The notes beneath the pieces were generated by a model that saw only the letters and a list, made by a program, of their open reading frames with translations, ran no database searches and was not told the DNA's origin. A stretch of 54,321 nucleotides of DNA from a virus: UHGV virus genome UHGV-0135730; one strand, given 5' to 3'. This document shows, piece after piece, positions 6,014 through 22,723 of this stretch; position 1 is the first letter of the stretch, and each line of letters starts with the position of its first letter. The translations under genes were made by a program, and so were the position numbers.

Positions 6014-6016
6014 TTG

Positions 6017-7034: not shown

Positions 7035-7211
7035 TTATTTTTGATTCTCTGTTTCGTTCAGCCTTTCGGCGTGTCCGGCCCTTAGCCAATGATCTAAACA
7101 TTCGTTGCACTCGTTACAGCCTCCTTTCTTTGTGCTGCATACATTGCACATTGCACGCATGACGCTTTCTCGTTCATAGTCGTCATGCCATTGGTAATTA
7201 TCAAAAGACAT
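7035..7211 (-). CDS. Hypothetical Cys-rich small protein (58 aa)
   Basis: Strong AGGAGGG RBS; CNVC...CNECNEC motifs suggest zinc ribbon. Confidence 0.5.
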   Translation of the reverse strand: MSFDNYQWHDDYERESVMRAMCNVCSTKKGGCNECNECLDHWLRAGHAERLNETENQK

Positions 7212-7291
7212 AATGCTCCCTCCTTTTCAGGTGATTTATACGCATTTCAGCGCTGCCGGATTTTTAAAGAGCATTTTGTTTGCTTGAAGTA

Positions 7292-7366
7292 TACAAAATG
7301 GATACATGCAAACAAGACAAAAAGCGCCATTATGTGATCCGCATCACGCAATGACGCCATTTTGTA
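7292..7366. promoter_or_regulatory. Intergenic regulatory region: divergent TACAAAATGG motifs flanking palindrome TGTGATCCGCATCACG
   Basis: TACAAAATGG at 7292-7301 (+) and 7357-7366 (-); TGTGA-N6-TCACG palindrome at 7333-7348. Confidence 0.45.
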
Positions 7367-7370
7367 AACT

Positions 7371-8153: not shown

Positions 8154-8695
8154 TTTTTGCCCTCAAACGTGAAATAGCGGCGCATGATGATAGTGATCAC
8201 CGTCACCGCTGCCATTTTTGAGATAAACTGCATCGCTGATATTTCCGGCATAAACGCCATAAACGATAGCGTCGGGAAAATTAACGCATCCCCGATGGCT
8301 GAAGCTATATTTGCAGGCCAGCGTTTCGAATCGAAATCACCAGGCAAAACCCGGTAAACACCGCCAGATATAAGCGCACCGGAAACAACCGCGACGAATG
8401 ACGCTATTGCTACCATTCCTGCATCGTAATTTATTAGCACCGTGATTGCGCCAGCGGCGGCGCATGTTGTAGCCGACCATTTCAGGCCGCCGTCATATAA
8501 CAGGAAGTCACGGATCATCATATTGACACATACAGCGGCTACCGTAGTGATCGGAATTACCCACGGGCCGCAATGGTTAACAATAAGGTTGATGATCACG
8601 AAAACGGCGACATAAACGCAGGCCAATAACCTGTCAATTGTCACCTTTTTCATTTGGGTCATACCTCTTATCGCGAATAGCTTCAGATCTGTCAA
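8150..8695 (-). CDS. Multi-pass inner membrane protein, unknown function
   Basis: 181 aa with at least 5 hydrophobic helices; overlaps neighbours. Confidence 0.5.
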   Translation of the reverse strand: MTDLKLFAIRGMTQMKKVTIDRLLACVYVAVFVIINLIVNHCGPWVIPITTVAAVCVNMMIRDFLLYDGGLKWSATTCAAAGAITVLINYDAGMVAIASFVAVVSGALISGGVYRVLPGDFDSKRWPANIASAIGDALIFPTLSFMAFMPEISAMQFISKMAAVTVITIIMRRYFTFEGKK

Positions 8696-9131
8696 AACTC
8701 AAATCAAGCCGAGTTGAAATACAACCGCATTGAGGGTTAAGCATTGAATGAGGCAATCCCTTACAGCTTGTTATTGCTGCGTCATTTATTATTCCATCAT
8801 TAATATTGGCGGCAGTGAACTGCCTTTTCTTCAGTTCCTCTTCCCTATCGTTTAATATTTGCTCCGCTTTTAGTGCGCTGTAGCTAATTAAATCAACCAA
8901 TGTATCAGTAGGATCGCTTTCATTAACTAAAATGGCCTCTAAACGCGCCTCCTTAAGACAAATCAACAGATCCCACACATCAAGTGGGGTTAAACTTGCC
9001 CCCTTCTTAGCGTTGTATATAGTGGCTATTTTTGGCGCTGATTTTTCCTCTTTTCTGTCGTAGCCGTTTTGTTTACCCCTTTGCTCTATTGTTTCCGCTG
9101 CAACTCGTAATAAATCTGCTGCACTAGTCAT
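8634..9131 (-). CDS. Hypothetical protein
   Basis: Start at MTSAADLL; between Dam-like methylase and membrane protein. Confidence 0.45.
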   Translation of the reverse strand: MTSAADLLRVAAETIEQRGKQNGYDRKEEKSAPKIATIYNAKKGASLTPLDVWDLLICLKEARLEAILVNESDPTDTLVDLISYSALKAEQILNDREEELKKRQFTAANINDGIINDAAITSCKGLPHSMLNPQCGCISTRLDLSFDRSEAIRDKRYDPNEKGDN

Positions 9132-9663
9132 TTTCTGCACCTCTTGCATATAGCTCTTTACGCGTTATGTGTGTGAAAATACATTCATGTCTGCACCGTG
9201 GATGCCAGATCAAAAACAAGCTCCCCTTGTTGTTTCCGCTAACTGGCTTACCAGTCGCAGCATTTATAAAAGCCAGCCGCCCGCGCGTTATTAATCTGCA
9301 TTCGTTTGCCGTCTCAACGCCGTTCATGAACCAGCTAACAGAAACGTCAGCGGGCAACAACATTACGCAACCAATGTGATTTCGTTGATGTTCAAGCGCC
9401 GCTTTATCAACGAATGGCCCTGGGTTTGAGTATGGCGGATTCATCCAGACATATTCACCAGGCATTGCCACCGCTCCCCACGGATAATGCAGCGTGTCCA
9501 TTTCTTCGGTTATATATCGCGGGATTAATGCGTTTGCCTTGTTTGCCGCCACGTCAGCGACAAATTCAAACTCGCGGTCCATTCCTCTAAAAACTGGTTT
9601 AGGTGTCTGCCACAGGTCTTTAATTTCCTTCGGCGTGCTGCTGCCTCCAAAATCATTTTTCAT
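9124..9663 (-). CDS. DNA N6-adenine methyltransferase (phage Dam-like)
   Basis: NPPY catalytic motif (VWMNPPYSN) and size typical of phage N6A methylases. Confidence 0.7.
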   Translation of the reverse strand: MKNDFGGSSTPKEIKDLWQTPKPVFRGMDREFEFVADVAANKANALIPRYITEEMDTLHYPWGAVAMPGEYVWMNPPYSNPGPFVDKAALEHQRNHIGCVMLLPADVSVSWFMNGVETANECRLITRGRLAFINAATGKPVSGNNKGSLFLIWHPRCRHECIFTHITRKELYARGAEND

Positions 9664-9672
9664 TACGCCCCC

Positions 9673-9921
9673 TTAAAAATAATCTTGTTCAGTCCCCCAA
9701 CGGTTGTTTAAATACCCAACCAACCAGATAAAACGCTCAATGCTGATTAGCGGGGCAACCTTGCGATAATGCTTTTCTAATATCAGCCGCGTAGCTTTAT
9801 CGCTGTAGCCGTTTCTTTCTACCTCTGCTTTGCAGGCAGAAAGCGCCGCACGCGCGGCAGTTTTTACGGCATTAAATTGCAGTTCTGACATATTGAACAA
9901 AGCCATAGGATCACCATTCAT
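9673..9921 (-). CDS. Hypothetical protein
   Basis: Start placed at MNGDPMALF to avoid long overlap. Confidence 0.35.
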   Translation of the reverse strand: MNGDPMALFNMSELQFNAVKTAARAALSACKAEVERNGYSDKATRLILEKHYRKVAPLISIERFIWLVGYLNNRWGTEQDYF

Positions 9922-10144
9922 CCCAATCCTGCGAAACGGTAAGGCAAAAACCGATGAATGCGCTACCAGCCAATAAAGCGCGCACAGTAAAAAGAATACT
10001 TTCAATGTCGTTAAATTCAGGTACTGACCATGTAACAAACATCATACCCAGCGTAAATATAACGATAGCGCCGCTGAACACCAAAAAAACAGAAAGCGTA
10101 GCCAAAAGCCACGCCTTTAACCAGTTTAAAAAGATTTTAACCAT
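9911..10144 (-). CDS. Hypothetical membrane protein (2 TM)
   Basis: 77 aa with two long hydrophobic helices. Confidence 0.45.
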   Translation of the reverse strand: MVKIFLNWLKAWLLATLSVFLVFSGAIVIFTLGMMFVTWSVPEFNDIESILFTVRALLAGSAFIGFCLTVSQDWDEW

Positions 10145-10145
10145 T

Positions 10146-10349
10146 TTAAACCTCGTCTATTACACCGCCTTGCACGCGCTCTTTAATGTCCCATGTATGA
10201 GGCTTGCATAATTCTTGATAATAGTGATCCGGCCTGCTGCCGAAATACCATTTACCTTCCATATAAAAATAAACGCCCGAAAATATTCCGGGCGCTGCCT
10301 TTGTTGCTGATTCTGGAATCTTCCAGTCTTTATACTGTTTAAACTTCAT
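10146..10349 (-). CDS. Hypothetical protein
   Basis: 67 aa ORF. Confidence 0.4.
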   Translation of the reverse strand: MKFKQYKDWKIPESATKAAPGIFSGVYFYMEGKWYFGSRPDHYYQELCKPHTWDIKERVQGGVIDEV

Positions 10350-10533
10350 GAGCTTTTAAGTAACCTCTTCTGAATGCTTTGATGTAAAGTCCTAGCCTTC
10401 TTATATGCTGAACGCCATCAATGATGCGCACCAAATAAATTTTCCCGTTTGTGTCAGATACAAAACGACAACCAAAACCAATGCCAACCAACGTCAGGTT
10501 GTCAGGTATTCTATAATCAGTTTTCTGTTCCAT
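10339..10533 (-). CDS. Hypothetical protein
   Basis: 64 aa ORF. Confidence 0.4.
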   Translation of the reverse strand: MEQKTDYRIPDNLTLVGIGFGCRFVSDTNGKIYLVRIIDGVQHIRRLGLYIKAFRRGYLKAHEV

Positions 10534-10536
10534 GCC

Positions 10537-10629
10537 TCACCTCATATGGTATTCAATAAACCACCTGATAAACAGGCATAAGGCAATAAAACCCCAGCAA
10601 CAGCACATATAAAACAATGTGTCGTCCAT
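10537..10629 (-). CDS. Small hydrophobic peptide (30 aa)
   Basis: MDDTLFYMCCCWGFIALCLFIRWFIEYHMR; packed between flanking genes (3-nt gaps). Confidence 0.4.
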   Translation of the reverse strand: MDDTLFYMCCCWGFIALCLFIRWFIEYHMR

Positions 10630-10631
10630 AA

Positions 10632-10850
10632 TTAAGCCTCAATAACACCGTAATCAAACGTGCCCAAATACCGTTCGATACTTACAACTTCAATACCATC
10701 AACGCACCGTTTCCACACAGACACCTGGCTTTCATTTTCTCTGAAGTGCATATTAGAAAGCACTTCATCGGCTGGATAGCCTTTCCCGGCGACGTAGGCA
10801 TCGTGACCTACTCCACCCTCAACACAATAAAGCATTAATTCGCGGGCCAT
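10632..10850 (-). CDS. Hypothetical protein
   Basis: 72 aa ORF downstream of predicted promoter. Confidence 0.45.
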   Translation of the reverse strand: MARELMLYCVEGGVGHDAYVAGKGYPADEVLSNMHFRENESQVSVWKRCVDGIEVVSIERYLGTFDYGVIEA

Positions 10851-10924
10851 CTTATTTCCCTCCGCACCGTAAACCTTTTGATTTCAGTTCACAAAACGGA
10901 TTCGCGATCACAATACAAAACGTA

Positions 10925-10953
10925 TATTTATGTGATCGCAATCACGATGTCAA
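10925..10953 (-). promoter_or_regulatory. Candidate sigma70 promoter with operator-like palindrome in spacer
   Basis: Minus strand TTGACA-17-TAAATA; the 17-nt spacer contains palindrome TGTGATCGCAATCACG (10931-10946). Confidence 0.5.
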
Positions 10954-11570
10954 TGAAGTACGCGTTTTTCAGGTTCTGGCATTGGCTGTGCGTCTTTCCG
11001 TGCGTCATTAAGCACGGCTATAGCTGCCTGTACACCTAAATCATTTGCGCGCATATTATTGCCAACCATTTCGCCGTAAAATAATGGCATGATCGCCTTT
11101 ACTTCTTCCTCTGTGTGCCCTTCATCAATACACTTCTGTAACGCTTTAGCCTCGAATACTTTTTTCATTACGCCGCGCATAGAATACAGCGCAACGCTAC
11201 CCATATGATTTTTATCTAACGGGAAAATAACCGCACTTCCGAACGCCAGCGGGTCAATTTCTTCCGGCACTGGCACGCGACCATACTCCTCTTCCATGCG
11301 CTTTACGAAAGTAAGGCAGAAGACATAGCGAGCTACGGCAGTTTTTTCTTCAGCGTTTAAAGACACATAATCGCGGATCGACGCGTCCATCACAATATCA
11401 ACAATCTGTAACGCCAGATTCAAATCGGCGTCATACTTGCCAGATTCCATATCTTTCAATACTTCGTGATAATCTTTAATTTCCACTTCATGAAAACTTG
11501 CGTCTTCAGTGTAGCGAGTGATTAACATGCCTTCGCTGCCGAGTGAATAAGCTGTTTTGATGTCTTTCAT
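10950..11570 (-). CDS. Hypothetical protein
   Basis: 206 aa ORF. Confidence 0.5.
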   Translation of the reverse strand: MKDIKTAYSLGSEGMLITRYTEDASFHEVEIKDYHEVLKDMESGKYDADLNLALQIVDIVMDASIRDYVSLNAEEKTAVARYVFCLTFVKRMEEEYGRVPVPEEIDPLAFGSAVIFPLDKNHMGSVALYSMRGVMKKVFEAKALQKCIDEGHTEEEVKAIMPLFYGEMVGNNMRANDLGVQAAIAVLNDARKDAQPMPEPEKRVLH

Positions 11571-11583
11571 GATATTTATCCTT

Positions 11584-11916
11584 TTATAGTGGGTGATGCC
11601 ATTTCATTTCTGTTTCTGAATTAAACGGGTTTCCTTCGCTTGAAAGGAATAAATCACGCTCCCGTTTCAGTTCTTCCGGGCTTATTTCTATTTCATCAAT
11701 CTGACCGAACGATCCCGGCATCATTCGTTTTAAATCAGATAGCGGACGCATAAGGCCGCAGCCGCGTAACAGCATATCGACCGCGAATTGTCTACGTCCG
11801 GCGGCGTCATTAAAGCGCCGCGCCCAGGGCACAACCACGATCCGGCGTTCGAATTCGATAAATAGTGATAGCTTGTTTGTTTCGCTATCATATGCTTTAT
11901 GGAATTTAATTTTCAT
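11584..11916 (-). CDS. Hypothetical protein
   Basis: 110 aa ORF. Confidence 0.45.
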   Translation of the reverse strand: MKIKFHKAYDSETNKLSLFIEFERRIVVVPWARRFNDAAGRRQFAVDMLLRGCGLMRPLSDLKRMMPGSFGQIDEIEISPEELKRERDLFLSSEGNPFNSETEMKWHHPL

Positions 11917-12097
11917 TTAACACCTCAACATATTGTTCAAGATGCCATTGACCCACCTCATCATCTTCCTCGTCAAATAATGTTACCTGACCACCAGGCC
12001 CAAAAGAAAAGGCAGCTATGATAAATTTATACCCATACCACGTACGGATCTTTTCGCCGCCTTTTAAATCTTTAACTTTCACCAATTTTATAGCCAT
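11906..12097 (-). CDS. Hypothetical protein
   Basis: 63 aa ORF. Confidence 0.4.
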   Translation of the reverse strand: MAIKLVKVKDLKGGEKIRTWYGYKFIIAAFSFGPGGQVTLFDEEDDEVGQWHLEQYVEVLNEN

Positions 12098-12360
12098 ACG
12101 CCGAACATCCCATTCAGTCCGGCGAACAATTTCCGCCAGTGGTTTTCAACATAAGCCCGGAACGGCTTAACGCGAACATTGCGGGCCTTCAGTTCAATCT
12201 TGTCGAAGAAACGCGGCTCTATAATTGTTCCATCTAGATATTTAACCAGGATCGGGCGCTCAAGATCGTTATATGTCTTGTTCAGCACAACCAGACCAGG
12301 GTCTTTACGGTATTCCGGGAGCACGACCAGATCGCCCGTTTTGATATTCATGAATGGCAT
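12088..12360 (-). CDS. Hypothetical protein
   Basis: 90 aa; ATG at 12360 overlaps stop of upstream peptide gene (TGATG). Confidence 0.45.
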   Translation of the reverse strand: MPFMNIKTGDLVVLPEYRKDPGLVVLNKTYNDLERPILVKYLDGTIIEPRFFDKIELKARNVRVKPFRAYVENHWRKLFAGLNGMFGVWL

Positions 12361-12476
12361 CACATCACCCCGCCGATATAGCTAATAATTGCCGCAGTCG
12401 CGCCAGCCATTACCACCATGAAGACGAAAGCGACCACGCAGAAAACAGCCTTGACAGTATTTTTGTCGACTCGCAT
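12360..12476 (-). CDS. Small hydrophobic peptide (38 aa)
   Basis: MRVDKNTVKAVFCVVAFVFMVVMAGATAAIISYIGGVM; single predicted TM helix. Confidence 0.45.
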   Translation of the reverse strand: MRVDKNTVKAVFCVVAFVFMVVMAGATAAIISYIGGVM

Positions 12477-12483
12477 ATAAACC

Positions 12484-12591
12484 TCACATGTCAGTAATCA
12501 GCTTAACAATCGCCACAGTGATATAAAGTGACGCAATAAGGTAAACAGCCGCCACAGCAACGGCGGCGGATAACATTGCAATCTTTTTCAT
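12484..12591 (-). CDS. Small hydrophobic peptide (35 aa)
   Basis: MKKIAMLSAAVAVAAVYLIASLYITVAIVKLITDM; ATGA overlap with upstream gene. Confidence 0.45.
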   Translation of the reverse strand: MKKIAMLSAAVAVAAVYLIASLYITVAIVKLITDM

Positions 12592-12827
12592 TTGCCACCC
12601 TCCGCAATGAACTTATCAAGCCATTTGTTATTAGCCAGCCGTTCTTTGTCATTACCAAAACTGTTTCTGCTTAAAAGCTCCTGTTTTGTTAATTGCGGCC
12701 ACTTATCCGTCCACCCAGCCGACGTATCGAACTCATACAGACCGCCGTCAAAAGTAACAAAGTCATCAGCCGTGTCAGGCACTTCTTTATCAACTTCTTT
12801 TTCTTCGATCATGATTTGATACCTCAT
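12588..12827 (-). CDS. Hypothetical protein
   Basis: 79 aa ORF. Confidence 0.45.
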   Translation of the reverse strand: MRYQIMIEEKEVDKEVPDTADDFVTFDGGLYEFDTSAGWTDKWPQLTKQELLSRNSFGNDKERLANNKWLDKFIAEGGK

Positions 12828-13120
12828 TAATCGTTAATGACCTGGCCCATACGCCCGCGATATTTGCGCATACGTGGATCGACATATTCAGGCCAATGCA
12901 TATCCGGTTTTCTTTGCAGTGGGTAAAAACTTGCCTGCCAGTTGTCGAACCATATTTGCTTTGCGTACAGGTCACTAAATCTTTTCGCCATTCGTTCCGC
13001 TGCCGTGCCGCATAAAAAAAGCCCGCGATCGATTTGATCACGGGCTTCTCTTAAAACTTGCTCTTTTGTTCGCGGAATCGGTGGCGCATTAAGATAATGC
13101 GTGGATTCTGCTTTTTCCAT
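12827..13120 (-). CDS. Hypothetical protein
   Basis: Start at MEKAEST; downstream of SSB. Confidence 0.4.
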   Translation of the reverse strand: MEKAESTHYLNAPPIPRTKEQVLREARDQIDRGLFLCGTAAERMAKRFSDLYAKQIWFDNWQASFYPLQRKPDMHWPEYVDPRMRKYRGRMGQVIND

Positions 13121-13556
13121 ATTGTAACCCAATAGGAGCAAATGGAATATCGTCGTCGAGGTCCATCGGCGGCGCATTATTCCCGTTATTATTCTGCTGC
13201 TGCGGCGGCGCTTTCTGCTGCTGGCCTTGCTGCTGGCCTTGTTGGTTAACGTTCATGAATTCGAATTCGTTAACCGCCACTTCAACCGCCGTCCCCTTCG
13301 TGCCGTCGTTCCGGTCATATTGCCGAACATCCAGGCGACCGCTTACCACTATTTTTCCACCCTTACGAATATGTGGCGCTAATTTTTCCGCACGCTCGCC
13401 AAATACCAGGCAAGTGATCCACATTACCCGCTTATTATCGCCGTAGCCATTCGTTACAGCTAACGGAAAGCTACCAATAGCTTTACCGTTTTGCGTGTAG
13501 CGAACTTCCATATCATTTCCGATATTACCGCCCAGCATGATTGAATTTAAGCTCAT
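13089..13556 (-). CDS. ssb: Single-stranded DNA-binding protein
   Basis: OB-fold-like N-terminus, Gln/Gly-rich linker, C-terminal acidic tip DDDIPF. Confidence 0.85.
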   Translation of the reverse strand: MSLNSIMLGGNIGNDMEVRYTQNGKAIGSFPLAVTNGYGDNKRVMWITCLVFGERAEKLAPHIRKGGKIVVSGRLDVRQYDRNDGTKGTAVEVAVNEFEFMNVNQQGQQQGQQQKAPPQQQNNNGNNAPPMDLDDDIPFAPIGLQYGKSRIHALS

Positions 13557-14209
13557 TAACCGATCTCCCCGTTAAGCTCTTTTAAGCGAATATCATAAAC
13601 GTCTTTAGCTTTCTGTTGCTGCTCTGAATCTTTAGGAAGTAGCTTCCAGCACTTTCCGAAGATCTCGCGTAACTTGTTAGCGTCCGGCGCTTTCGCTGCC
13701 GCATCACAGAAACGCGCTAACACTTCATCAGGATTTGGCGGCGCTTTCTGCTGCTGTGGTTTCTGATTAGTTTGTTGTTTTGGTGGGTTTTTCTGTTGGC
13801 GAGGCTGCTGGCCTGTCTGCTTAGCGTATGCGTCAGTATCAGGATCTCGCGCATCGTCAATGCAGAACAATCCGTTCAACGCGTATTTACGCGCATAACT
13901 TGATGTCGCGCCAGTTAACTGGCTTGCGTCCATTCCCTTCTTGCTTTCTTCTTCCCTGGCGTAAGCAGTTACCGCAATTTCATCTTCGCCGTCGCTTAGT
14001 GTAGCCGTGGCTTTCACATAATAGCGATTGCCGATCAGGACGATTTCATCGCTAACAGTCAGCGTTATATTTTGAAGAAGTGGCTTAACCGCCTCCAAAA
14101 TATCCTCCGCCGACCTGTAATTGTACCCACCAAAATTATTACGCTGATTTTTCGGCGCGTTCAACGTTTGTTGAATCGTCCACAGCTTTTTGTGTAACTC
14201 TGTTTTCAC
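13556..14209 (-). CDS. erf: ERF-family single-strand annealing recombinase
   Basis: N-terminal FGGYNYRSAEDILEAVKPLL and TGATSSYARKYALNGLF typical of ERF; GTG start with AGGAG RBS. Confidence 0.75.
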   Translation of the reverse strand: MKTELHKKLWTIQQTLNAPKNQRNNFGGYNYRSAEDILEAVKPLLQNITLTVSDEIVLIGNRYYVKATATLSDGEDEIAVTAYAREEESKKGMDASQLTGATSSYARKYALNGLFCIDDARDPDTDAYAKQTGQQPRQQKNPPKQQTNQKPQQQKAPPNPDEVLARFCDAAAKAPDANKLREIFGKCWKLLPKDSEQQQKAKDVYDIRLKELNGEIG

Positions 14210-14328
14210 TCTTTGATCTCCTTCGCTGTTAACACTATGTATAAGGCTTTATTCGCGGCGCTCCACATTTCGGCATCGTGAAGCATTTCCGCTACTGCCA
14301 GTTTGAATTGAAGCGCCTCGATAACCAT
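14206..14328 (-). CDS. Hypothetical small protein (40 aa)
   Basis: GGAGG RBS; stop overlaps erf start (GTGA). Confidence 0.35.
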   Translation of the reverse strand: MVIEALQFKLAVAEMLHDAEMWSAANKALYIVLTAKEIKE

Positions 14329-14358
14329 AATGTAACCTCCGAATGTTTACATTTTGTA

Positions 14359-14649
14359 TTAATGGTAACGGACTTTATCCAGGGGTTTCTCCCCTAAATG
14401 GCGTGGTTGCGTTGCGTGGTAGTAGCTGCCACTTTCATTTTCCGTATACCATTTTACTGATCCTTTGCGACGTTCTTTTTTGCCATCTGGCTTGCATCTT
14501 TCGTCACTTGCCATTCGAATGGCTTTTTCCACATTGTCAGTTTTATTAATTGCAGGTGATGATTTTCTTTCGTTTTCTCTTTTTATCCTTCTGCGTTCCC
14601 TGGCATTTATTTTGCTATCACATTTACCATATATAATTGTAACGCTCAT
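14359..14649 (-). CDS. Arg-rich basic protein, candidate N-like antiterminator
   Basis: First gene after the pL-like promoter and a 340-nt leader; N-terminal arginine-rich motif NARERRRIKRENERK resembles N-family ARM. Confidence 0.4.
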   Translation of the reverse strand: MSVTIIYGKCDSKINARERRRIKRENERKSSPAINKTDNVEKAIRMASDERCKPDGKKERRKGSVKWYTENESGSYYHATQPRHLGEKPLDKVRYH

Positions 14650-14705
14650 AATCTGATCTCCGTATATCCTTGATGATACTTAATAAAAAATCATCTTCGT
14701 TAATT

Positions 14706-14743
14706 GCCGCACTTCCAGCGGCTGACCAGATTGTTAATGAGCG
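14706..14743 (-). promoter_or_regulatory. Candidate nutL (boxA-like plus boxB-like hairpin)
   Basis: Minus strand CGCTCATTA (boxA-like) then 12 nt then hairpin GCCGC-UGGAAGU-GCGGC, upstream of the N-like gene. Confidence 0.35.
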
Positions 14744-14997
14744 GCTTAACATCTTTCAACTAATCCCGCAATCATCGCCGTTCCCGGCGTGACCTTGCTC
14801 ACTCCAAGCAAGCTGACTCGTCGCCTTGCGTGCGGTTTCGTGGGGGATGTAACGCTTTAAACACCCCATGCGCCTTGTTATCAGTGCCGCTTTCGGTCCC
14901 CCATCGGGGAGTTACTCCACGGTTGACAAGGTGTTAAGCCTGATTTTTAAAGTGCCAGGAAGTTGCTTTTGTTGCCTGCTCCCTTCCTTTGATTCGC

Positions 14998-15040
14998 AAT
15001 ATACGCCCCGTAAAACACCGAGTCAATCCATTTTGTATAC
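14998..15040 (-). promoter_or_regulatory. Early leftward promoter (pL-like)
   Basis: Minus strand GTATACAAAATGG-A-TTGACT-17-TATATT. Confidence 0.6.
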
Positions 15041-15107
15041 TTTTTTAAAATATTTTATATACTATTGATATTTAAACAATAAATAGCGTTTTCTGTTTAC
15101 GTTTTGG

Positions 15108-15145
15108 TGTTTTTTCGAACAAAGAAAAGCCGCCACCAGGCGGCT
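15108..15145 (-). terminator. Rho-independent terminator after repressor gene
   Basis: Hairpin AGCCGCC-ACCA-GGCGGCT followed by T-rich run on minus strand. Confidence 0.6.
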
Positions 15146-15150
15146 AATGT

Positions 15151-15798
15151 TTATGGCAGGTTTACGATCTTCGCATCAACAACCACGCCAATGATTTTTG
15201 ACTCTGGATTCATAGGGATCGGCGGATACAACGGATTCAGTGAACGCAAAAGTTTTCGGCCTCCATCAATAATCAACTGTTTAAACGTAGGTATCTGCCC
15301 TTCCTCCAGTTGTGCTATAACAAGTTTTCCGTCAATAGCTGGCGCGTGCGGGTCAACGAGTATCATAGTCCCCGCCGGGATGCTTAACCCCTGCGGTGCG
15401 TTCATTGATTCACCTTTAGCAACCAGCCAATAACTATCATCCGAACAAATAACGCTAGTAGCAACGTGTGGCAATGTTGATCGGTGTGTGCCTTCCATAT
15501 TGTTTGCTACATCCTTCCAGTCAACAACCGGGTAACTGCCTAAATCACGCGGTGGCGCTCCCGACAACGTGTTAGAAACAGAATCATCAATGACCATTCC
15601 GTCATGAGTAACAGTAAATTGCCGACGCCCAAGCGCCCGCATGATACGCGCAATATCTTCAAGATTCGGCTCACGGCGACCGTTCAGCCAGTGAGAAAGG
15701 CCGCCTTTGGTTATCCCCATAAGATCAGCCAATGAATCCTGGCTCATGCCCTGCGCCCGCATGAGTTGTTTTGCTAAGTCATACCATTTTGTTTTCAT
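15151..15798 (-). CDS. CI-like prophage repressor (HTH plus S24 LexA-like peptidase)
   Basis: N-terminal HTH (QDSLADLMGITKGGLSHWLNG), C-terminal S24 domain with GESM serine motif. Confidence 0.85.
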   Translation of the reverse strand: MKTKWYDLAKQLMRAQGMSQDSLADLMGITKGGLSHWLNGRREPNLEDIARIMRALGRRQFTVTHDGMVIDDSVSNTLSGAPPRDLGSYPVVDWKDVANNMEGTHRSTLPHVATSVICSDDSYWLVAKGESMNAPQGLSIPAGTMILVDPHAPAIDGKLVIAQLEEGQIPTFKQLIIDGGRKLLRSLNPLYPPIPMNPESKIIGVVVDAKIVNLP

Positions 15799-15857
15799 GT
15801 CGCTACCCTATAACCTAAAAAATTTTGATGCAAGTCACAAAACGTGTTTTTCAAGCC

Positions 15858-15885
15858 TTGACCTGTTAGCGCCATTATGTAAACT
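15858..15885 (+). promoter_or_regulatory. Early rightward promoter (pR-like) within operator region
   Basis: TTGACC-16-TAAACT; flanked by TTGATGCAAG / CTTGCAATGATGCAAGG operator-like repeats. Confidence 0.45.
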
Positions 15886-15961
15886 TGCTGACAAGGTAAA
15901 GCCATACTTGCAATGATGCAAGGAAAAAGATAAGGGAAAGCACAAAAAGGCCGACGCCTTA

Positions 15962-15995
15962 AGCTCTTTAAAAATCCGGTGTCGCTGCGAAGCGA
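15962..15995 (+). promoter_or_regulatory. Candidate nutR (boxA-like plus short hairpin)
   Basis: AGCTCTTTA followed by hairpin TCGC-TGCGAA-GCGA in the rightward leader. Confidence 0.25.
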
Positions 15996-16103
15996 AAAAC
16001 AAATATCACGCAACGGCGGGATCTGTTGAGCGGTCAGTCACTGCTATCTAATGCTAATGGGATGCCCGCCCGCGCGTTCACTCTAACCATAGGAGAAAAG
16101 AAT

Positions 16104-16349
16104 ATGTATTACGTGCGCAAGGCTTTTGATATTCGCCTGAATAACAATGATCCGGCGCAAAAACTCATCTTAATTGCACTGGCAACAAAGGCCGGATGCA
16201 ACGGCAAAAGCGAAGTAACGCCAGAAGAGATCGCGGAAATGTGCGAAATTTCGTTACGCGATACTATCTCTGCACTGCATCAACTGAAAAGAAGCGGCCT
16301 AATCAGCCAGCTGCCAGGTTTCTTCTGTGTTTATCAGTTAATGTTTTAG
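16104..16349 (+). CDS. HTH protein, paralog of replication-initiator N-terminal domain (possible Cro/cII-like regulator)
   Basis: First rightward gene, AGGAGA RBS; LILIALATKAGCNGKSEVTPEEIAEMCEISLRDTISALHQLKRSGLI parallels N-terminus of 16356-17363 product. Confidence 0.55.
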   Translation: MYYVRKAFDIRLNNNDPAQKLILIALATKAGCNGKSEVTPEEIAEMCEISLRDTISALHQLKRSGLISQLPGFFCVYQLMF

Positions 16350-16355
16350 TTCGTC

Positions 16356-17363
16356 ATGAGGTTAATGCTTATGAGTATGCGGCTAATGGTAGAGGTCTTC
16401 CATACTGAGGTTGGCGACCCAATGCACAAACTGGTGCTGTTGAAGTTGGCTGATAACGCTAATGATAACGGCGAGTGTTACCCTTCTTACCATCACATAG
16501 CAAAGGAGTGTGAGATCAGCAAAAGAACAGCTATGAGGGCTGTAGACTCACTTTGTGAAAAAGGGTTGTTGATTAAACAACCAAGATATTTAATCGGAGG
16601 AAAAGAGCAAACTAGTAATTTCTATGTAATAGTCCTTCCGTCATTGCATGGTAGTGTCACTATGACACCGGGGGTAGTGACACAGAGTCACCAGGGTAGT
16701 GACACAGAGTCACCGGGGGTAGTGTCACAGAGTCACCCTAACCAGTCATATATAACCAGTAAAGAGAACATTAAAAACAATACACTCCGTGTATTGGAAA
16801 AAGACCGGTCTATCAGCGAAGAAGATCGGGAGGTTAATCTGGCGGCATTGCGTTGCCTGGCCTTCTACAACGACAAGGCAGGATGCAAATGTCGTGATGC
16901 AAAGCCATTCGTAGAACTACTGACAGAAACAAAAACACGTAAAGCGTATACGGAGGATGAAATCACATTAGTGATTGAGTGGGCTTTAACACAATGGCGT
17001 AGCCGTGGTGGAACACCTAAGCCTATAAACATTTGCCGGGTAACTAAATTTGATGGGTATCTGGCTGACGCTGAAAAATGGCACAAACTGTCAGCCACTG
17101 CAAACGCTGCCGACGTAGTGGAGGCATTTAACAGCACGTTTGATGGCCTGTTGCCACCTGCCGAACTGGATCGGGATCTTGAACGCAAGATTTATGCGTT
17201 CACTGACTACCTGAAAGACAAAAGCATCAACGGCTTTGTCGCCTACTTTGAAACGTTCAAAAACACGGCTTCAGATTTTTACTTCGGCAATGGCTTCACA
17301 GCGACACTTGATTTCCTGCTTAAACCAAAAACGCTACGTGATACACGATGTGGCGCTCTTTGA
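16356..17363 (+). CDS. Replication initiator (lambda O-like, winged-HTH N-terminus)
   Basis: HTH replication-protein-like N-terminus; iterons within coding sequence as in lambda O; start may be ATG 16371. Confidence 0.7.
   Translation: MRLMLMSMRLMVEVFHTEVGDPMHKLVLLKLADNANDNGECYPSYHHIAKECEISKRTAMRAVDSLCEKGLLIKQPRYLIGGKEQTSNFYVIVLPSLHGSVTMTPGVVTQSHQGSDTESPGVVSQSHPNQSYITSKENIKNNTLRVLEKDRSISEEDREVNLAALRCLAFYNDKAGCKCRDAKPFVELLTETKTRKAYTEDEITLVIEWALTQWRSRGGTPKPINICRVTKFDGYLADAEKWHKLSATANAADVVEAFNSTFDGLLPPAELDRDLERKIYAFTDYLKDKSINGFVAYFETFKNTASDFYFGNGFTATLDFLLKPKTLRDTRCGAL
16650..16737. repeat. Origin iterons (4 direct repeats, about 22-bp period) inside initiator gene
   Basis: GGTAGTGACACAGAGTCACC at 16673, 16695, 16718 plus degenerate copy at 16650; each contains GTGAC/GTCAC inverted half-sites; AT-rich stretch follows. 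Confidence 0.8.
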
Positions 17364-17496
17364 CCAACCACGATCTGCAAAAATCCAAAATTACCCACAA
17401 AACAACCTCACCGGCGAGCTAAAACACGCATGGTGCTACGACTGCATATCTTTAGCGGTCTAGCTCGTTATAGAGCGTTTTAGAGAGGATTTTAAA

Positions 17497-17598
17497 ATGG
17501 ACGGTAAACACGTTTTCGCCCTGGCCTTTGCCATCGCTGCTGCAATCGCTGTTAACGTCGCTTTGTTCGGCGGTTTGTTCCTTCTTATCAATCCATAA
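17497..17598 (+). CDS. Small hydrophobic peptide (33 aa)
   Basis: MDGKHVFALAFAIAAAIAVNVALFGGLFLLINP; GAGAGGA RBS; intergenic between initiator and antirepressor. Confidence 0.4.
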   Translation: MDGKHVFALAFAIAAAIAVNVALFGGLFLLINP

Positions 17599-17730
17599 CC
17601 TTCATACCAGTCTGTAAATCAAAAATTAGCCACCTGAAAGCGCCTCTGACGCAATAAGACACTGCAACCTGTGCAAACGGGTTACGCGGTGGGATTTTTG
17701 CGTTGTAGCGCGTTTTACGGAGAAATTACA

Positions 17731-18474
17731 ATGTCTGAGTTGATGTGTTTTAATTTTGATGACAATAAAATCACTGCTGTAATTTATGATGGTAAACCTG
17801 CTTTTGTTGCAATGGATGTGGCGCGGGCGCTTGGGTACGCTACGCCGCAAGATGCCATTAAAAAGCATTGTAAGTCATTGATAAAAATAAAATGTCGTGA
17901 AATGCGACATTTGGGTTTCGAACCAATCCCGCAAGGCGTAACGCTAATCCATGAATCAGATGTTTACCGCCTGGTGATGCGATCAAAAGTAGAATTGGCT
18001 GAGCGCTTCCAGGATTGGGTGTGCGAGGATGTTCTCCCTGCTTTGCGTGAAAATGGACATTACGGCTTTAAACCAGCTTTGCCGGATTTCACTGACCCAG
18101 TTGTTGCGGCTCGCGCATGGGCGGATGAGGTAGAGCAAAAACTATTAGCACAGAAGGAAGTTGATCGTCTGGCGCTGGAAAACAAGGAATTAGCGCCAAA
18201 AGCGGCTGTCTGTGATGCGATTGTAAGAAACGAACAGCATCGCAACGCGACACAGGTTGCCAAGCCTTTGGGTATGACTGCTACGCAACTCAACAAAAAA
18301 CTTGAACAGGTCGACGTCTACGATACGCGGATTAAGCGAGGCGGTCGTATGTTCAAGCAGTGGTTCGTAGACAAAGGCTACGGAGTGGTAAAATGTTCGG
18401 CTGAAGGTTACGTCCAATCACTATTTACTGCTAAGGGTCAGATTTGGGTGTCTGAACTTTTTGCGTGTAAGTAG
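17731..18474 (+). CDS. Antirepressor (Bro-N domain plus C-terminal KilA-C-like region)
   Basis: Bro-N-like N-terminus (FNFDDNKITAVIYDGKPAFVAMDVARALGY); GGAG RBS. Confidence 0.65.
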   Translation: MSELMCFNFDDNKITAVIYDGKPAFVAMDVARALGYATPQDAIKKHCKSLIKIKCREMRHLGFEPIPQGVTLIHESDVYRLVMRSKVELAERFQDWVCEDVLPALRENGHYGFKPALPDFTDPVVAARAWADEVEQKLLAQKEVDRLALENKELAPKAAVCDAIVRNEQHRNATQVAKPLGMTATQLNKKLEQVDVYDTRIKRGGRMFKQWFVDKGYGVVKCSAEGYVQSLFTAKGQIWVSELFACK

Positions 18475-18507
18475 GTATACATTTTGTTAACTGGAGGGAT
18501 TAACATT

Positions 18508-19626
18508 ATGTCGCAAAGAAAAATCAGCGATGAGCAATTGATCGCTGAATACAACAACGGTTTAACGTACAAACAGATTGCTGAGAAGTACGGCATGTCT
18601 AAACGCAATGTCGAGCGCCTGGGCGCAAAACTGGCGAAACGTGGTTTATTATCAACACGCCGCGCGCCTGGTTTTGGCGTCAATGGCGAGTCGTTGCTAG
18701 TCGATAAAAACGGCAATGTGATCATGCGCTGGATTAAAACAGCCCGTGACCGCGACGAAATGGAACAGCTAATGGAAGCGGCCCGCGACGCTTTCACGGA
18801 TGAAATACCACGCGCGGAGGCTGTGCCAGTGCCTGAAATTGATTTTCAAAAAAGCCTGGCACTTTACCCGGTATTTGACCTGCATATCGGGGCGCTTGCT
18901 CATAAAGCTGAATGCGGAGAGAGCTACGATACTGGGATCGCTGAGCGCGTGTTGAATGACTTCTTTGACTACGCTGTTGGCGCTGCTCCGATGTCTGAAA
19001 AAGCAGTACTGCTCCTCGGTGGCGATCTACTTCATTCTGACGGTATGGTCCCGGTGACGCCAACAAGCGGGCACATTCTTGATCAAGATAGTCGCTACGC
19101 AAAACTTGTTTATGTGGCGATCCGGTCTGTCCGGCGGGCGGTAGGAAAGATGTTGTTAAATCATAAAGATGTTGAAATCCAGGTGTTATCAGGCAATCAC
19201 GATCAGTCGGGCATGATTTGGCTACGTGCGGCGCTGGCGGCTTTTTACGAAGATGAACCGCGCGTGACGGTTGATGTATCACCTGCTATTGTCCACCACA
19301 CACAGTACGGTAAAACATTCCTTGCATATCATCACGGTCATACTATCAAAAAACCTGAAAATTTGTTGTCTGCCTGCGTATCTGACTGGCGTGAGGATTT
19401 CGGCAAGTCGGCGGCTGTTTACGCTCACACTGGACATCTACATCACCAATCTGTTGTTGAAACATCATTGGGGATCGTTGAACACCACGGCACGTTAGCT
19501 GGCAAAGACGCATATTCGACTAATGGCGGCTGGCGGTCGCGGCGGCTGGCAGCGGTGATTATTTACAGCCCGGATCATGGGGAAATTGGGCGCTTTGTTT
19601 ATTACCCTGAATATTCCATTTTGTAA
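18508..19626 (+). CDS. HTH domain fused to calcineurin-like metallophosphoesterase
   Basis: N-terminal HTH (LTYKQIAEKYGMSKRNVERL); phosphoesterase motifs DLH, GGDLLH, GNHD, HHGH, GHLHH in canonical order. Confidence 0.6.
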   Translation: MSQRKISDEQLIAEYNNGLTYKQIAEKYGMSKRNVERLGAKLAKRGLLSTRRAPGFGVNGESLLVDKNGNVIMRWIKTARDRDEMEQLMEAARDAFTDEIPRAEAVPVPEIDFQKSLALYPVFDLHIGALAHKAECGESYDTGIAERVLNDFFDYAVGAAPMSEKAVLLLGGDLLHSDGMVPVTPTSGHILDQDSRYAKLVYVAIRSVRRAVGKMLLNHKDVEIQVLSGNHDQSGMIWLRAALAAFYEDEPRVTVDVSPAIVHHTQYGKTFLAYHHGHTIKKPENLLSACVSDWREDFGKSAAVYAHTGHLHHQSVVETSLGIVEHHGTLAGKDAYSTNGGWRSRRLAAVIIYSPDHGEIGRFVYYPEYSIL

Positions 19627-19644
19627 ACCGGAGGTAATGACATA

Positions 19645-21060
19645 ATGGTAACTGAGCAAATAAACTCACTACGGCAGGAACGTGAAGCGTCAGTTATCGG
19701 CGGGCTGCTGTTAGGTGGCCTCACTCCTAACGCGCAAGATGTTCTCGCCACTCTGGATCCTGAAGTGTTCACGATCTCGCTTTACAAACGTGCGTTTGAA
19801 GTTATCCGGGCGCAAGCCAGAAACAGGAATCTTATCGACGCGTTATTGGTTGGCGATGAGATTGGGAATGAAAACTTTGTTCCTCTGATGCAAACGGCGC
19901 GATCGTGTCCTTCTGCCGCCAACCTGAAGGGATACGCACAGCTACTACGTGAAGAGCACCAGCGGCGGCAGATGTTGGAACTCATCGACGATATGCGCTA
20001 CAAGCTGGAAACGGGGACGCTTGAAGTCGTCAAAGAGACGATGAAAGATTTTGATTCCCGGTACTCAAAATTAAAAGTAACTAAAGACAAGATCATTCCT
20101 GTTCTGTTGCGCGATGCGGTACAGGAATACACGGAGGTTTTAAGCAAGCGCATGGAATGCGGTGTCAATTCTGACAACATCAAAACAGGGATAGAACCAC
20201 TCGACGAAATGTTAGGCGGCATTAACGCTACTGATTTGGTGCTTCTCGCCGGACGTCCTGGGTCTGGTAAATCTGCGTTGGCGCTTGCAATTGCCCGCGA
20301 GGCTGCCGAACGCCCTTACCCTGGCGGCGAAGGTCAGCGGGTAGGCGTTTTGCTGTTTACGCTTGAAATGTCACTCGATCAGATGACTGAGCGGGCTATA
20401 GCTGGCGCTGGCAATTTATCAACTGACTGCCTGCGCAATCCGGTAAAACTTGATGATGAGGGGTGGGCGCATGTCGGCCAGGGTATGAGCGCACTTGCTA
20501 ATCTTGATGTGTGGATCGTTGACGCGTCGCAGTTAACGGTTGAGGAAATACGCGCAACAACGGAACGCATGAAGCAGGATCACCCGAACCTGGGTATGGT
20601 AATGATTGACTATATCGGGTTAATGAAGCTGGCTAAAGCCGAACGTCACGATCTCGCCGTGGGGCAATTATCGTGGTCGTTAAAGATGATGGCTAAAGAA
20701 TTGCGCGTACCAGTGTTGGCGCTGGCGCAATTGTCACGCCGAGTTGAGGAACGACCAAACAAGCGCCCTAATAATTCTGATCTTCGTGATTCTGGCAACC
20801 TTGAGCAAGATGCCGACAGGATAATCATGGTTTACCGCGATGGATATTACGACGAACAGTCTGTTGCCCGCGAATATATGGAAATCATTGTGTCAAAAAA
20901 CCGTCATGGTAAGTCTGGAACTGTTTACCAGCGGTTTGATGACAACGGTAATATCTTGCCATGCGACCAGGCGCGCGCAGCCGCAGCGTGCATTCAGTCA
21001 ATGAATCATCGCACAAGCCGTTTTAACCAACGAAACAATCAGAATAACGCATCTTTTTAA
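19645..21060 (+). CDS. DnaB-family replicative helicase
   Basis: Walker A GRPGSGKS, RecA-like C-terminal domain; 471 aa. Confidence 0.85.
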   Translation: MVTEQINSLRQEREASVIGGLLLGGLTPNAQDVLATLDPEVFTISLYKRAFEVIRAQARNRNLIDALLVGDEIGNENFVPLMQTARSCPSAANLKGYAQLLREEHQRRQMLELIDDMRYKLETGTLEVVKETMKDFDSRYSKLKVTKDKIIPVLLRDAVQEYTEVLSKRMECGVNSDNIKTGIEPLDEMLGGINATDLVLLAGRPGSGKSALALAIAREAAERPYPGGEGQRVGVLLFTLEMSLDQMTERAIAGAGNLSTDCLRNPVKLDDEGWAHVGQGMSALANLDVWIVDASQLTVEEIRATTERMKQDHPNLGMVMIDYIGLMKLAKAERHDLAVGQLSWSLKMMAKELRVPVLALAQLSRRVEERPNKRPNNSDLRDSGNLEQDADRIIMVYRDGYYDEQSVAREYMEIIVSKNRHGKSGTVYQRFDDNGNILPCDQARAAAACIQSMNHRTSRFNQRNNQNNASF

Positions 21061-21136
21061 TCAATATTAGCAAACAGCTTGCCGGAAAGTTTACCGCTTT
21101 CTGGTGGCTGTTATCGCGTTTTAAACGAGGCTAAAA

Positions 21137-21694
21137 ATGAGCGCTGAAATTGAAACAAAAATTATCAATATCCTTGAACTTGATGGCATCGCAACAATGC
21201 ACCAGTTACGCCAGAAAACAGGGTTATTGGCTTGGTATGATAAGGACGGAATCATGCCTGAGACAATTAAACACTTAATAAAAAACGGCATCGTCGAGCG
21301 CGTGTATACATGTTTTGGACGCCGCCGCCGCCTGCTGGGTTATCGCATTAAACAGTTATATGCTGAACGTCGTGAGCGTGTTGCGTCGTTATTTGGTGAC
21401 TACAGCGTTAAAAAACGTATGCGCGACATTAGCGCTGAGACTGGTATCCCGTGGAATTATCTTTCTCGTACTCTTCGCCTAATGGTGATTGATGAAACAC
21501 TTTGCGTTGATCCAAATAGGCACGGCGTTAACTTTTACTCACTGTTTAAACCTGGGCGATTCGGTCACGCTAATGATTTGGCGTTTGACTTTGACAGCCG
21601 CCTGAGCGAATACCGGAAAAATAACGGCCTGCTACCTGATAAACCAGTGTTTGAGATTGAAAAACTTAACGGTGAAACGGGGTTGGAATTATGA
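21137..21694 (+). CDS. Hypothetical protein
   Basis: 185 aa ORF downstream of helicase. Confidence 0.5.
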   Translation: MSAEIETKIINILELDGIATMHQLRQKTGLLAWYDKDGIMPETIKHLIKNGIVERVYTCFGRRRRLLGYRIKQLYAERRERVASLFGDYSVKKRMRDISAETGIPWNYLSRTLRLMVIDETLCVDPNRHGVNFYSLFKPGRFGHANDLAFDFDSRLSEYRKNNGLLPDKPVFEIEKLNGETGLEL

Positions 21695-21897
21695 GACGGG
21701 TAATTTTTTATTCAGTTGAAACGTTTATTGACGAATCTCACTTTAAATTCACACGCGATCCTTGCGGAACGATGGTTTATACGCCTCCACTAATGCGCAA
21801 GTATAAGCACGTAAAATTTAACCGTGCTTTTGTGCCGATTCGTTACGCTTTGCAGGCGTTGCGCGGTGAATTACGAAACACAATGCGTATTGTGTAA
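21691..21897 (+). CDS. Hypothetical protein
   Basis: 68 aa ORF, ATGA overlap. Confidence 0.4.
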   Translation: MRRVIFYSVETFIDESHFKFTRDPCGTMVYTPPLMRKYKHVKFNRAFVPIRYALQALRGELRNTMRIV

Positions 21898-21907
21898 GGG
21901 GGAGATC

Positions 21908-22105
21908 ATGAACAGGGAATTGGATTTGACCGTGGAAGACTTAAGCACGATTGCGGAATACATGCGCGGCGGCGATCCTGATAAGCCTGTTGTTGTTGAT
22001 ATGAGGTACTTAAAAAGCGCTTTTATGACAAGCTCGCGCCTAATTTCTTTGCGGGCGATCATGTATGCGCGGGCACAGTGGAAAAATAGTAACGGTGTAT
22101 CATGA
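21908..22105 (+). CDS. Hypothetical protein
   Basis: Start at MNRELD with GGGGGAG RBS. Confidence 0.4.
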   Translation: MNRELDLTVEDLSTIAEYMRGGDPDKPVVVDMRYLKSAFMTSSRLISLRAIMYARAQWKNSNGVS

Positions 22106-22533
22106 GGCAAATAAGATTTGAAATAGTAAACGACGCCGTAAAAGAAAACGCTATCAGGCAGATAAGAGAGATCCAGCCTGATAGCAAAAGCCCGCTGGTA
22201 ATTACCATCCGTGAGAAGACACGCTCACTGAGTCAAAATGCGTTGCTTTGGGCGCTATTAACAGACGTTAGCGATCAGGTTAATTGGTACGGAAAAAAGC
22301 TGTCGCCGGAAGATTGGAAAGCGGTATTTACTGCCGGGCTTAAGAAATATGGCGTTGTCCCTAACCTGGATAAATCAGGTTTTGTTGTGCTGGGTACGTC
22401 AACCAGCCGGATGAGTAAGGCTGAATTTAGCGAATTAATCGAACTGATCTACTCGTTCGGCGCTGAACATGGTGTTCAGTGGTCTGGCGATACGAAGTTA
22501 AACGAGGAATTTATAAAACGCTGGGGGCAATAA
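22102..22533 (+). CDS. ninB: NinB (Orf-family recombination mediator)
   Basis: 143 aa; SLSQNALLWA motif characteristic of lambda NinB. Confidence 0.75.
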   Translation: MRQIRFEIVNDAVKENAIRQIREIQPDSKSPLVITIREKTRSLSQNALLWALLTDVSDQVNWYGKKLSPEDWKAVFTAGLKKYGVVPNLDKSGFVVLGTSTSRMSKAEFSELIELIYSFGAEHGVQWSGDTKLNEEFIKRWGQ

Positions 22534-22709
22534 TGGTTCGTTACTACATGGCTAAACCTACAGGCATTTTGTATAAGATTGATGGCGAATATGTTTATTA
22601 CTTTCACAATCAGGCGCGTGAGTGGCGATTATGTCACGCGCACTTTCAGCACGAAATAGAAAACCATCCTGAATATTTTATCAAAGTTGACAATGTAACG
22701 GTGGCGTAA
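22533..22709 (+). CDS. Hypothetical protein
   Basis: 58 aa ORF with overlapping stop-start. Confidence 0.35.
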   Translation: MVRYYMAKPTGILYKIDGEYVYYFHNQAREWRLCHAHFQHEIENHPEYFIKVDNVTVA

Positions 22710-22723
22710 TTGAGGATAAGAAA

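Follow-up and report, generated by a model that had tools for sequence, protein, structure and literature searches.

The 54,321-nt UHGV virus genome UHGV-0135730 (the whole of which is referred to as the window) encodes what is almost certainly the antitermination system of the coliphage mEp021, composed of the N-like protein Gp17 and the three nut sites termed nutR1, nutL, and nutR2. Gp17 is described in PMC11893012 (section 3.5) as an experimentally demonstrated N-lambda-like antiterminator for the early antitermination of mEp021, and the same report has it act on three nut sites, one upstream of gp17 (nutR1), one upstream of the repressor gene (nutL), and one downstream of a methyltransferase gene (nutR2). 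As the primary description of the mEp021 Gp17 system dates from 2023 (Valencia-Toxqui et al., Arch Virol 168:92; as cited in PMC11893012), the system in the window is not new. Judging from its sequence, the window phage is a temperate, mEp021-type coliphage of the mEp-immI group. The region spanning 14200-16400 shares 96% DNA identity with mEp010 and 92% with mEp021, and was found in 35 out of 5426 complete Escherichia coli genomes, with a single occurrence in each. The mEp group has been reported to be Nus-dependent, the mEp collection having been isolated as Nus-dependent phages (PMC11893012).

The 96-aa protein is an ortholog of Gp17

The gene in question and its upstream elements are as follows.

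14359-14649, minus strand: N-like antiterminator gene, ortholog of mEp021 Gp17, 96 aa (arginine-rich motif encoded by 14563-14607)
14650 to ~14990, minus strand: leader of ~340 nt
15026 to 14998, minus strand: early promoter of the gp17-like operon, TTGACT-17-TATATT

A sequence-only reading of this region had proposed that a pL-like promoter is followed by a 340-nt leader and a first gene for a basic protein of the N family, and all of these proposals held in our analysis. The promoter lies ~340 nt upstream of the ATG at 14649, was the best match to the sigma-70 consensus (10/12) in a 14-kb scan (5000-19000), and is conserved in the related loci. As is expected for N-family genes, the gene is the first of an early operon beside the immunity repressor and is followed by terminators downstream. 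The encoded protein is small and basic (pI 9.9 and a net charge of ~+11), and bears an arginine-rich motif (ARM), NARERRRIKRENERK, near its N-terminus (residues 15-29; codons 14607 to 14563), in which the pattern A16-R17-x-R19-R20-R21-x-K23-R24 is recognized.

The protein is 88% identical to mEp021_17 (Gp17), and the 12 residues out of 96 that differ between the two all reside outside the ARM. R17, R19, R20, R21, and R24 are shared with mEp021 Gp17, the ARM being unchanged. Four of them (R17, R19, R20, and R24) are exactly the positions that are fully conserved in 48 members of the group (PMC11893012, 2025). The protein also shows at least 63% identity to the family members, the same length of 96 aa, and the C-terminal signature KWY.ENESG..HATQPR.LGEKPLDKVRYH, all of which characterize the Gp17 orthologs.

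Homology to the known N proteins was detected as well. Over its full length, the 96-aa protein matched PHROG 271 ("anti-termination protein N-like") with an E-value of 2.5e-11, and the same family was matched by P22 gp24 (7e-40) and lambda N (4e-23). In the hhalign comparison, the Gp17 family and P22 gp24 were aligned with a probability of 70% and an E-value of 4e-5 over residues 1-49, which include the ARM. In a joint alignment of the three proteins, NARERRRIKR (residues 15-24) of the window protein was aligned with NAKTRRHERR of P22 and DAQTRRRERR of lambda. A16, R20, and R24 were invariant, and the pattern A-x-x-R-R-x-x-(R/K)-R was shared by all three and followed by a D/S-x-V-x-K/S-A-I/L motif. 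Sub-threshold matches to Pfam N_peptide were obtained for 12 of the 14 family members. No model matching the Gp17-type protein was found in NCBIfam, which provided none even for lambda N. As no relative of the 96-aa protein was found in the GTDB representative genomes scanned, and tblastn against the phage records recovered 7 mEp-type phages only, the family is narrow.

Three nut sites in the early transcripts

Three pairs of boxA and boxB were identified in the window.

14743 to 14731, minus strand: boxA CGCTCATTAACAA of the nut site preceding the N-like gene (published nutR1), with the core CGCTCATTA at 14743 to 14735
14722 to 14706, minus strand: boxB hairpin of nutR1, GCCGC-U-GGAAG-U-GCGGC, -10.1 kcal/mol
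15962-15974, plus strand: boxA AGCTCTTTAAAAA of the replication-side nut site (published nutL)
15982-15995, plus strand: boxB hairpin of nutL, UCGCU-GCGA-AGCGA with a GNRA tetraloop, -6.5 kcal/mol
7310-7365, minus strand: strong terminator-like hairpin (7365 to 7317) with a U tract, equivalent to mEp021 TERM_4, -23.6 kcal/mol, z = -5.0
7273 to 7261, minus strand: boxA TGCTCTTTAAAAA of the third nut site (published nutR2)
7253 to 7240, minus strand: boxB hairpin of nutR2, GCGC-U-GAAA-U-GCGU

Both the boxA-like sequence and the GCCGC-UGGAAGU-GCGGC hairpin, which had been noticed in the leader from the sequence, were recovered in our analysis, with boxB beginning 8 nt after boxA. Structure prediction of the leader RNA, which the sequence-only reading had suggested as a check, returned the hairpin as the local fold. 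Nevertheless, 9 out of 200 shuffles folded equally well, so that the energy by itself provides modest evidence at best. The site had been called nutL-like; its identity as a nut site stands, while the name does not, as naming depends on orientation and the published counterpart is nutR1, the rightward site being the published nutL. The rightward pair at 15962-15995 is likewise present but is not the weaker one, as had been supposed, because its boxA is nearer to the consensus and its boxB is closed by a clean GNRA tetraloop. The host boxA of the rrn type is TGCTCTTTAACAA, from which the nutL boxA differs at 1-2 positions and the nutR1 boxA at 2.

The third site, which reads TGCTCTTTAAAAATCCGGCA-GCGC-U-GAAA-U-GCGU, lies outside the range covered by the sequence-only reading, and the two-site system proposed there is thus to be amended in number, although both of its sites stand. 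nutR2 is located ~45 nt past the terminator hairpin described above and directly ahead of the genes for a ninF-like protein, NinG, RusA, and Q. The 17 nt of its boxA and spacer, GCTCTTTAAAAATCCGG, recur without change in the site at 15963. The 14-mer GCTCTTTAAAAATC occurs in exactly two exact copies in the window, at 15963-15976 on the plus strand and at 7272 to 7259 on the minus strand; it recurs on the minus strand with two mismatches at 14742 to 14729 and with one at 14955 to 14942 (see below for the latter copy). Across the sites, boxB starts 6-9 nt after a GCTCTTTAAAAA-like boxA. Two search patterns, GCTCWTTAAMAAYC and boxA followed by CTGNRA within 6-12 nt, each occurred three times in the window against zero expected in shuffles, although both had been derived post hoc, after the sites were seen. 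Both patterns matched nutR1, nutL, and nutR2 only, and all three sites are oriented with transcription. Altogether, boxA and boxB follow the early promoters in the early transcripts, as in the phages using N-family proteins. Rfam gave no family at the gathering score in the whole window, and solely chance-level matches in 14600-16150.

In 45-nt comparisons with mEp021, nutR1 and nutL of the window showed no difference, and nutR2 showed a single one, at a base immediately 3' of boxB; the sequence from boxA to boxB is identical in the two phages at all three sites. The two phages further share the gene order, in which the repressor gene, a terminator, the promoter, the leader, gp17, the kil-like gene, erf, and ssb are followed, further downstream, by methyltransferase genes, a terminator, nutR2, ninF/G, rusA, and Q. 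Thus, the window protein belongs to the Gp17 group by the synteny of the immunity region and the same set of three nut sites, in addition to its sequence. On the other hand, the accessory genes between the first and third sites differ between mEp021 and the window. The abstract of the 2023 work on mEp021 reportedly describes reporters in which nut sites and terminators precede GFP, ARM mutants demonstrating ARM dependence, and a phage with gp17 deleted. It is also said to place nutR2 "more than 7.9 kbp" downstream of nutR1 and to have the polymerase read through to nutR2. From the boxA of the first site to that of the third, 7947 bp are counted in mEp021 and 7470 bp in the window. The distance of 7947 bp fits the reported ">7.9 kbp," and we take the site at 14743, and not the orphan boxA-like copy at 14955, to be nutR1.

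boxB stems covary and all loops are of the G-N-R-A type

Starting from an alignment of 14 family members, we retrieved 44 related loci from IMG/VR, which together with mEp021 constituted a comparison set of 45 genomes. All three nut sites were present in the related loci wherever the contig reaches them. The boxB variants observed were as follows.

nutR1: stems GCCGC/GCGGC, GCUAC/GUAGC, and UGCAC/GUGCA; loop GGAAG, or GAAA in divergent phages
nutR2: stems GCGC/GCGU, ACGC/GCGU, and CCGC/GCGG; loop GAAA
nutL: stem UCGC/GCGA; loops GCGA, GCAA, and GUGA

The compensatory stem CCGC/GCGG of nutR2 was found in six loci (L041-43 and L048-50). Covariation was counted on an alignment of boxB alone comprising 13 distinct variants, as MAFFT applied to the full boxA-boxB segments mis-registered the sites with 5-nt loops. 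Both sides were changed in 4 of the 5 stem pairs, the covariation score was reached by none of 500 shuffles, and every slid register collapsed. These counts do not represent independent events, as the boxB sites are in part paralogous and their sequences are related. In the 13 variants, the loop position 1 was always G and the position 4 was always A, so that all of them conform to G-N-R-A. The base flanking the loop on the 5' side was always U, and that on the 3' side was usually U, being A in most nutL variants and C in one nutR1 variant. Thus, boxB forms an RNA helix with a GNRA-like loop, as in the N family, and the covariation and the loop pattern are what a functional boxB would predict. 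Three loop forms can be distinguished, namely the 5-nt GGAAG flanked by a U.U mismatch, the GAAA tetraloop likewise flanked by U.U, and the GCGA tetraloop closed by U-A.

Relationship to P22 and lambda

P22 resembles the window in both the protein and the RNA. The N-terminus and ARM of P22 gp24 can be aligned with those of the window protein (MTV-ITYGK...NAKTRRHERR in the former and MSVTIIYGK...NARERRRIKR in the latter), and the two share the D-x-V-x-K-A-I motif as well as the membership of PHROG 271. In both phages, the gene comes after a nut site, and is the first of the operon beside the repressor, with kil and erf coming next. P22 nutR, CGCTCTTTACCAATCTG..CCGC-C-GACAA-C-GCGG, closely resembles the first site of the window, CGCTCATTAACAATCTG..CCGC-U-GGAAG-U-GCGG; boxA and the spacer (CGCTCTTTACCAATCTGAA-CCGC... 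in P22 and CGCTCATTAACAATCTGGTCAG-CCGC... in nutR1), the stem, and a 5-nt loop flanked by a mismatch of two pyrimidines are common to both. Nevertheless, the overall identity between the two proteins is ~27%, and their C-terminal halves are unrelated in sequence. P22 boxB bears a 5-nt GACAA loop, whereas two of the three boxB loops in the window are true 4-nt GNRA loops. P22 has two nut sites in contrast to three in the window, which, unlike P22, lacks cro before the replication-side nut site and has the N-like gene and Q transcribed in the same direction.

Lambda N also belongs to PHROG 271 and its ARM aligns with that of the window protein through A-x-x-R-R-x-x-(R/K)-R. boxA and the spacer of lambda nutL, CGCTCTTAAAAAT, resemble GCTCTTTAAAAAT in the window, and lambda depends on the host Nus factors as reported for the mEp group (PMC11893012). 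A weak C-terminal resemblance, R-K-x-x-x-x-W-Y, was not significant. Unlike the window, lambda boxB places a 5-nt GAAGA or GAAAA loop on a GCCCU/AGGGC stem, and lambda possesses two nut sites and encodes N and Q in opposite early operons. Altogether, the nut sites of the window look more like those of P22 than those of lambda, and P22 gp24 with its nut sites, rather than lambda N, appears to be the closest classical relative.

Proposed mechanism and alternatives

Early processive antitermination of the lambda/P22 type is the best-supported mechanism, and we hold it with high confidence as the overall explanation. Upon the loss of the repressor, RNA polymerase would start at two divergent early promoters flanking the repressor gene, and each early transcript would soon carry a nut site, boxA being followed by the boxB hairpin with its G-N-R-A-type loop. 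The first leftward gene would supply the 96-aa basic protein, of which the ARM would bind the boxB loop on the nascent RNA, and the protein and the host Nus factors on boxA would remain with the polymerase, which would then ignore terminators. Leftward, the minus-strand terminators at 12567 to 12548, 10296 to 10272, 10117 to 10093, and 7365 to 7317 would be read through. All of these sit between the first nut site and Q. After the terminator at 7.33 kb, the polymerase would meet the third nut site (7.27 kb) and proceed to ninG-rusA-Q, while antitermination on the rightward side would serve the replication genes. Our analysis shows the anatomy, homology, conservation, and RNA covariation of the system, and the antitermination activity is reported for the ortholog; the details of the Nus complex, and which terminators are overridden in the window phage, we infer.

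Several observations weigh against this explanation. The antitermination activity is known for the mEp021 ortholog, from which the window allele differs at 12 of the 96 residues, and would have to extend to the latter. The match to Pfam N_peptide fell below the curated cut-off (15.7 vs 27.9 bits), the Gp17 family showed no significant direct match to lambda N in hhalign, a 13-residue one at the C-terminus being non-significant, and phmmer against the PDB sequences matched neither an N peptide nor an N complex. The hairpin energies by themselves are not statistically striking. Finally, a simple scan of 16000-23400 found no convincing plus-strand intrinsic terminator beyond the right-hand nut site; this site may override Rho-dependent termination.

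The alternative to be considered most seriously, though we regard it as rather unlikely, is that the third site is served by a weak promoter of its own between the t4-like terminator and boxA, with nin-Q being a separate N-dependent unit. The strong terminator hairpin only ~45 nt upstream of the nutR2 boxA would suit such an arrangement, as would a copy of the repeat ATCCATTTTGTATACTT containing TATACT (7303 to 7287), which lies between the two and is conserved in most relatives. Nothing in this interval exceeded the scan threshold, however, the best manual fit being TTGTTT-16-TATACT (8/12), the orientation of the repeat is opposite at its two places in the window, and the 2023 abstract reportedly has read-through to nutR2. 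The same repeat deserves a description apart from this alternative. It is an exact 17-nt sequence present at 15026-15042 on the plus strand and 7287-7303 on the minus strand, with 0.01 expected by chance; one copy adjoins the -35 element of the main early promoter, and the other is flanked by the t4-like terminator and the third nut site. Most related loci keep both copies, and the TATACT within the element is a -10-like hexamer. The element may bind a regulator or belong to a secondary promoter.

The remaining alternatives concern the nature of the factor itself. In the temperate coliphage HK022, the position of N is occupied by the gene for Nun, a small ARM protein, and the window protein could be imagined as a Nun-like exclusion factor that terminates the transcription of competing phages by binding their boxB, rather than as an antiterminator of its own phage. 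The genome position and the N-terminal ARM, both as in Nun, and the small and distinct family are compatible with this idea. Nun, as generally known, terminates on the nut RNA of another phage, and HK022 itself relies on put RNAs for antitermination, whereas the window has its own nut sites. These three cognate boxA-boxB sites with covarying stems in its own early transcripts, the terminators between the early promoter and Q, and the antitermination reported for the ortholog (PMC11893012, section 3.5) render a Nun-like role very improbable. We consider it slightly less probable still that the structured 213-nt RNA of the leader is the real, put-like antiterminator acting in cis, the resemblance to boxA and boxB being secondary. 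The leader does fold well (z = -3.9) and one helix shows compensatory changes, but 9 of the 41 related loci lack the segment while retaining the gene and the nut site, and the segment has no match in Rfam and is missing from the other two nut sites. The least credible alternative, refuted as far as computation and published work can do so, is that the matches to boxA and boxB arose by chance and the open reading frame (ORF) encodes a small basic protein of another function. The motifs are indeed short, the hairpin energies unremarkable, and the Pfam score under the cut-off; against these stand three sites where none was expected, each correctly oriented and placed, the covariation in boxB, the membership of PHROG 271, and the published function of the ortholog (PMC11893012, section 3.5). 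Thus, we retain antitermination of the lambda/P22 type by the Gp17-type protein as the explanation.

A structured insertion in the leader

Upstream of the N-like gene, the leader contains two additional features.

14955 to 14942, minus strand: orphan boxA-like copy GCACTTTAAAAATC, with no boxB after it
14744-14941, minus strand: structured leader segment between the boxA copies, with 9-nt inverted ends GGCTTAACA/TGTTAAGCC

The sequence-only reading had listed a single boxA in the leader, to which the orphan copy is to be added. The whole leader folds better than its shuffles (z = -3.9). Two length forms were distinguished among the related loci, a short one with ~85 nt from the -10 element to boxB (9 loci) and a long one with ~298 nt (32 loci including the window and mEp021). 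The long leader corresponds to the short form plus ~213 nt, bounded by the two boxA-like copies (14955 to 14942 and 14743), and the orphan copy occupies the position of the functional boxA in the relatives with the short leader. The insertion of 213 nt could have split an ancestral boxA and left the orphan copy behind. Within the insertion, one helix is associated with three compensatory pairs, and a 37-aa ORF corresponds to mEp021_16. The insertion occurs in one copy per genome and is confined to this phage group. A multi-copy mobile element was considered as its source and rejected, as the insertion is single-copy and phage-group-specific.

Layout of the immunity and early-control region

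The region of 13.5-17.4 kb in the window comprises the immunity and early-control genes. The features flanking those described above are listed below together with the distal Q gene.

13089-13556, minus strand: SSB (name taken from the mEp021 annotation)
13556-14209, minus strand: Erf
14206-14328, minus strand: Kil-like ORF, 40 aa
15145 to 15128, minus strand: intrinsic terminator after the repressor gene, equivalent to mEp021 TERM_1
15151-15798, minus strand: cI-like repressor with HTH_3 and Peptidase_S24
15858-15917, plus strand: two overlapping candidate replication-side promoters, TTGACC-16-TAAACT and CTGACA-18-AATGAT (9/12 each, by consensus only)
16104-16349, plus strand: HTH_36 protein, 81 aa
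16356-17363, plus strand: replication initiator
5103-5831, minus strand: Q-type late antiterminator gene (Pfam Antiterm, 7e-32), after those for the ninF-like protein, NinG, and RusA

The terminator at 15128-15145 separates the immunity transcript from the early promoter of the gp17-like operon. The repressor is named "Rep021" in PMC11893012. Operator-like repeats common to both early promoters were looked for, and nothing convincing was found. The 40-aa ORF directly 3' of the N-like gene showed a weak match to Lambda_Kil (Pfam E-value of 3e-4, under the cut-off), and its match to PHROG 34942, a family of unknown function, was strong. The order of kil and then erf in the window is that downstream of P22 gene 24. 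The N-like gene and Q share the direction of transcription, with the recombination genes, at least one methyltransferase gene (Dam), and the nin genes between them, and the replication genes belong to the divergent operon. Pfam detected NinG (1e-67) and RusA (1e-14) between the third nut site and Q.

On the replication side, no cro-like or cII-like ORF was found between the early promoters and the first gene (15800-16104, plus strand). The nut site there resides in the untranslated leader, and the first product is the 81-aa HTH_36 protein, which resembles the N-terminus of replication initiators. The same early operon contains a Bro-N/KilAC (ANT) antirepressor-like gene at 17671-18474 on the plus strand.

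Implications

The discovery value of the system in the window is small, as it was characterized experimentally in mEp021 in 2023 and found conserved in 48 members in 2025, and its practical value lies in annotation. In the E. coli prophages and mEp phage records of RefSeq/GenBank examined, the Gp17 orthologs are labelled "hypothetical protein," as exemplified by the ortholog at 667-957 in two RefSeq E. coli loci (L051 and L052), and the phage MagusPhagus alone labels its Gp17-type gene as N-like. In mEp010 (L002), a spurious small ORF is called across a nut site (3447-3554). What the present analysis adds to the published description is modest, namely the likeness of the sites to those of P22, the evidence from covariation and the G-N-R-A pattern, the two boxB with tetraloops, and the leader insertion accompanied by the orphan boxA.

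We also entertain, as a doubtful proposal, the combined idea that a single ARM reads three distinct boxB loops and that the leader insertion acts as a module, either a regulatory RNA or a micro-protein, tuning the loading at the first nut site; neither part is stated in the literature surveyed. If this is true, the tetraloops would represent a class of boxB lacking the extruded loop base of lambda and P22, which might not need the contact of NusA to that base. The naturally occurring boxB variants, in which the stems covary and the loops conform to G-N-R-A, form a compact set that could guide work on the specificity between ARM and RNA.

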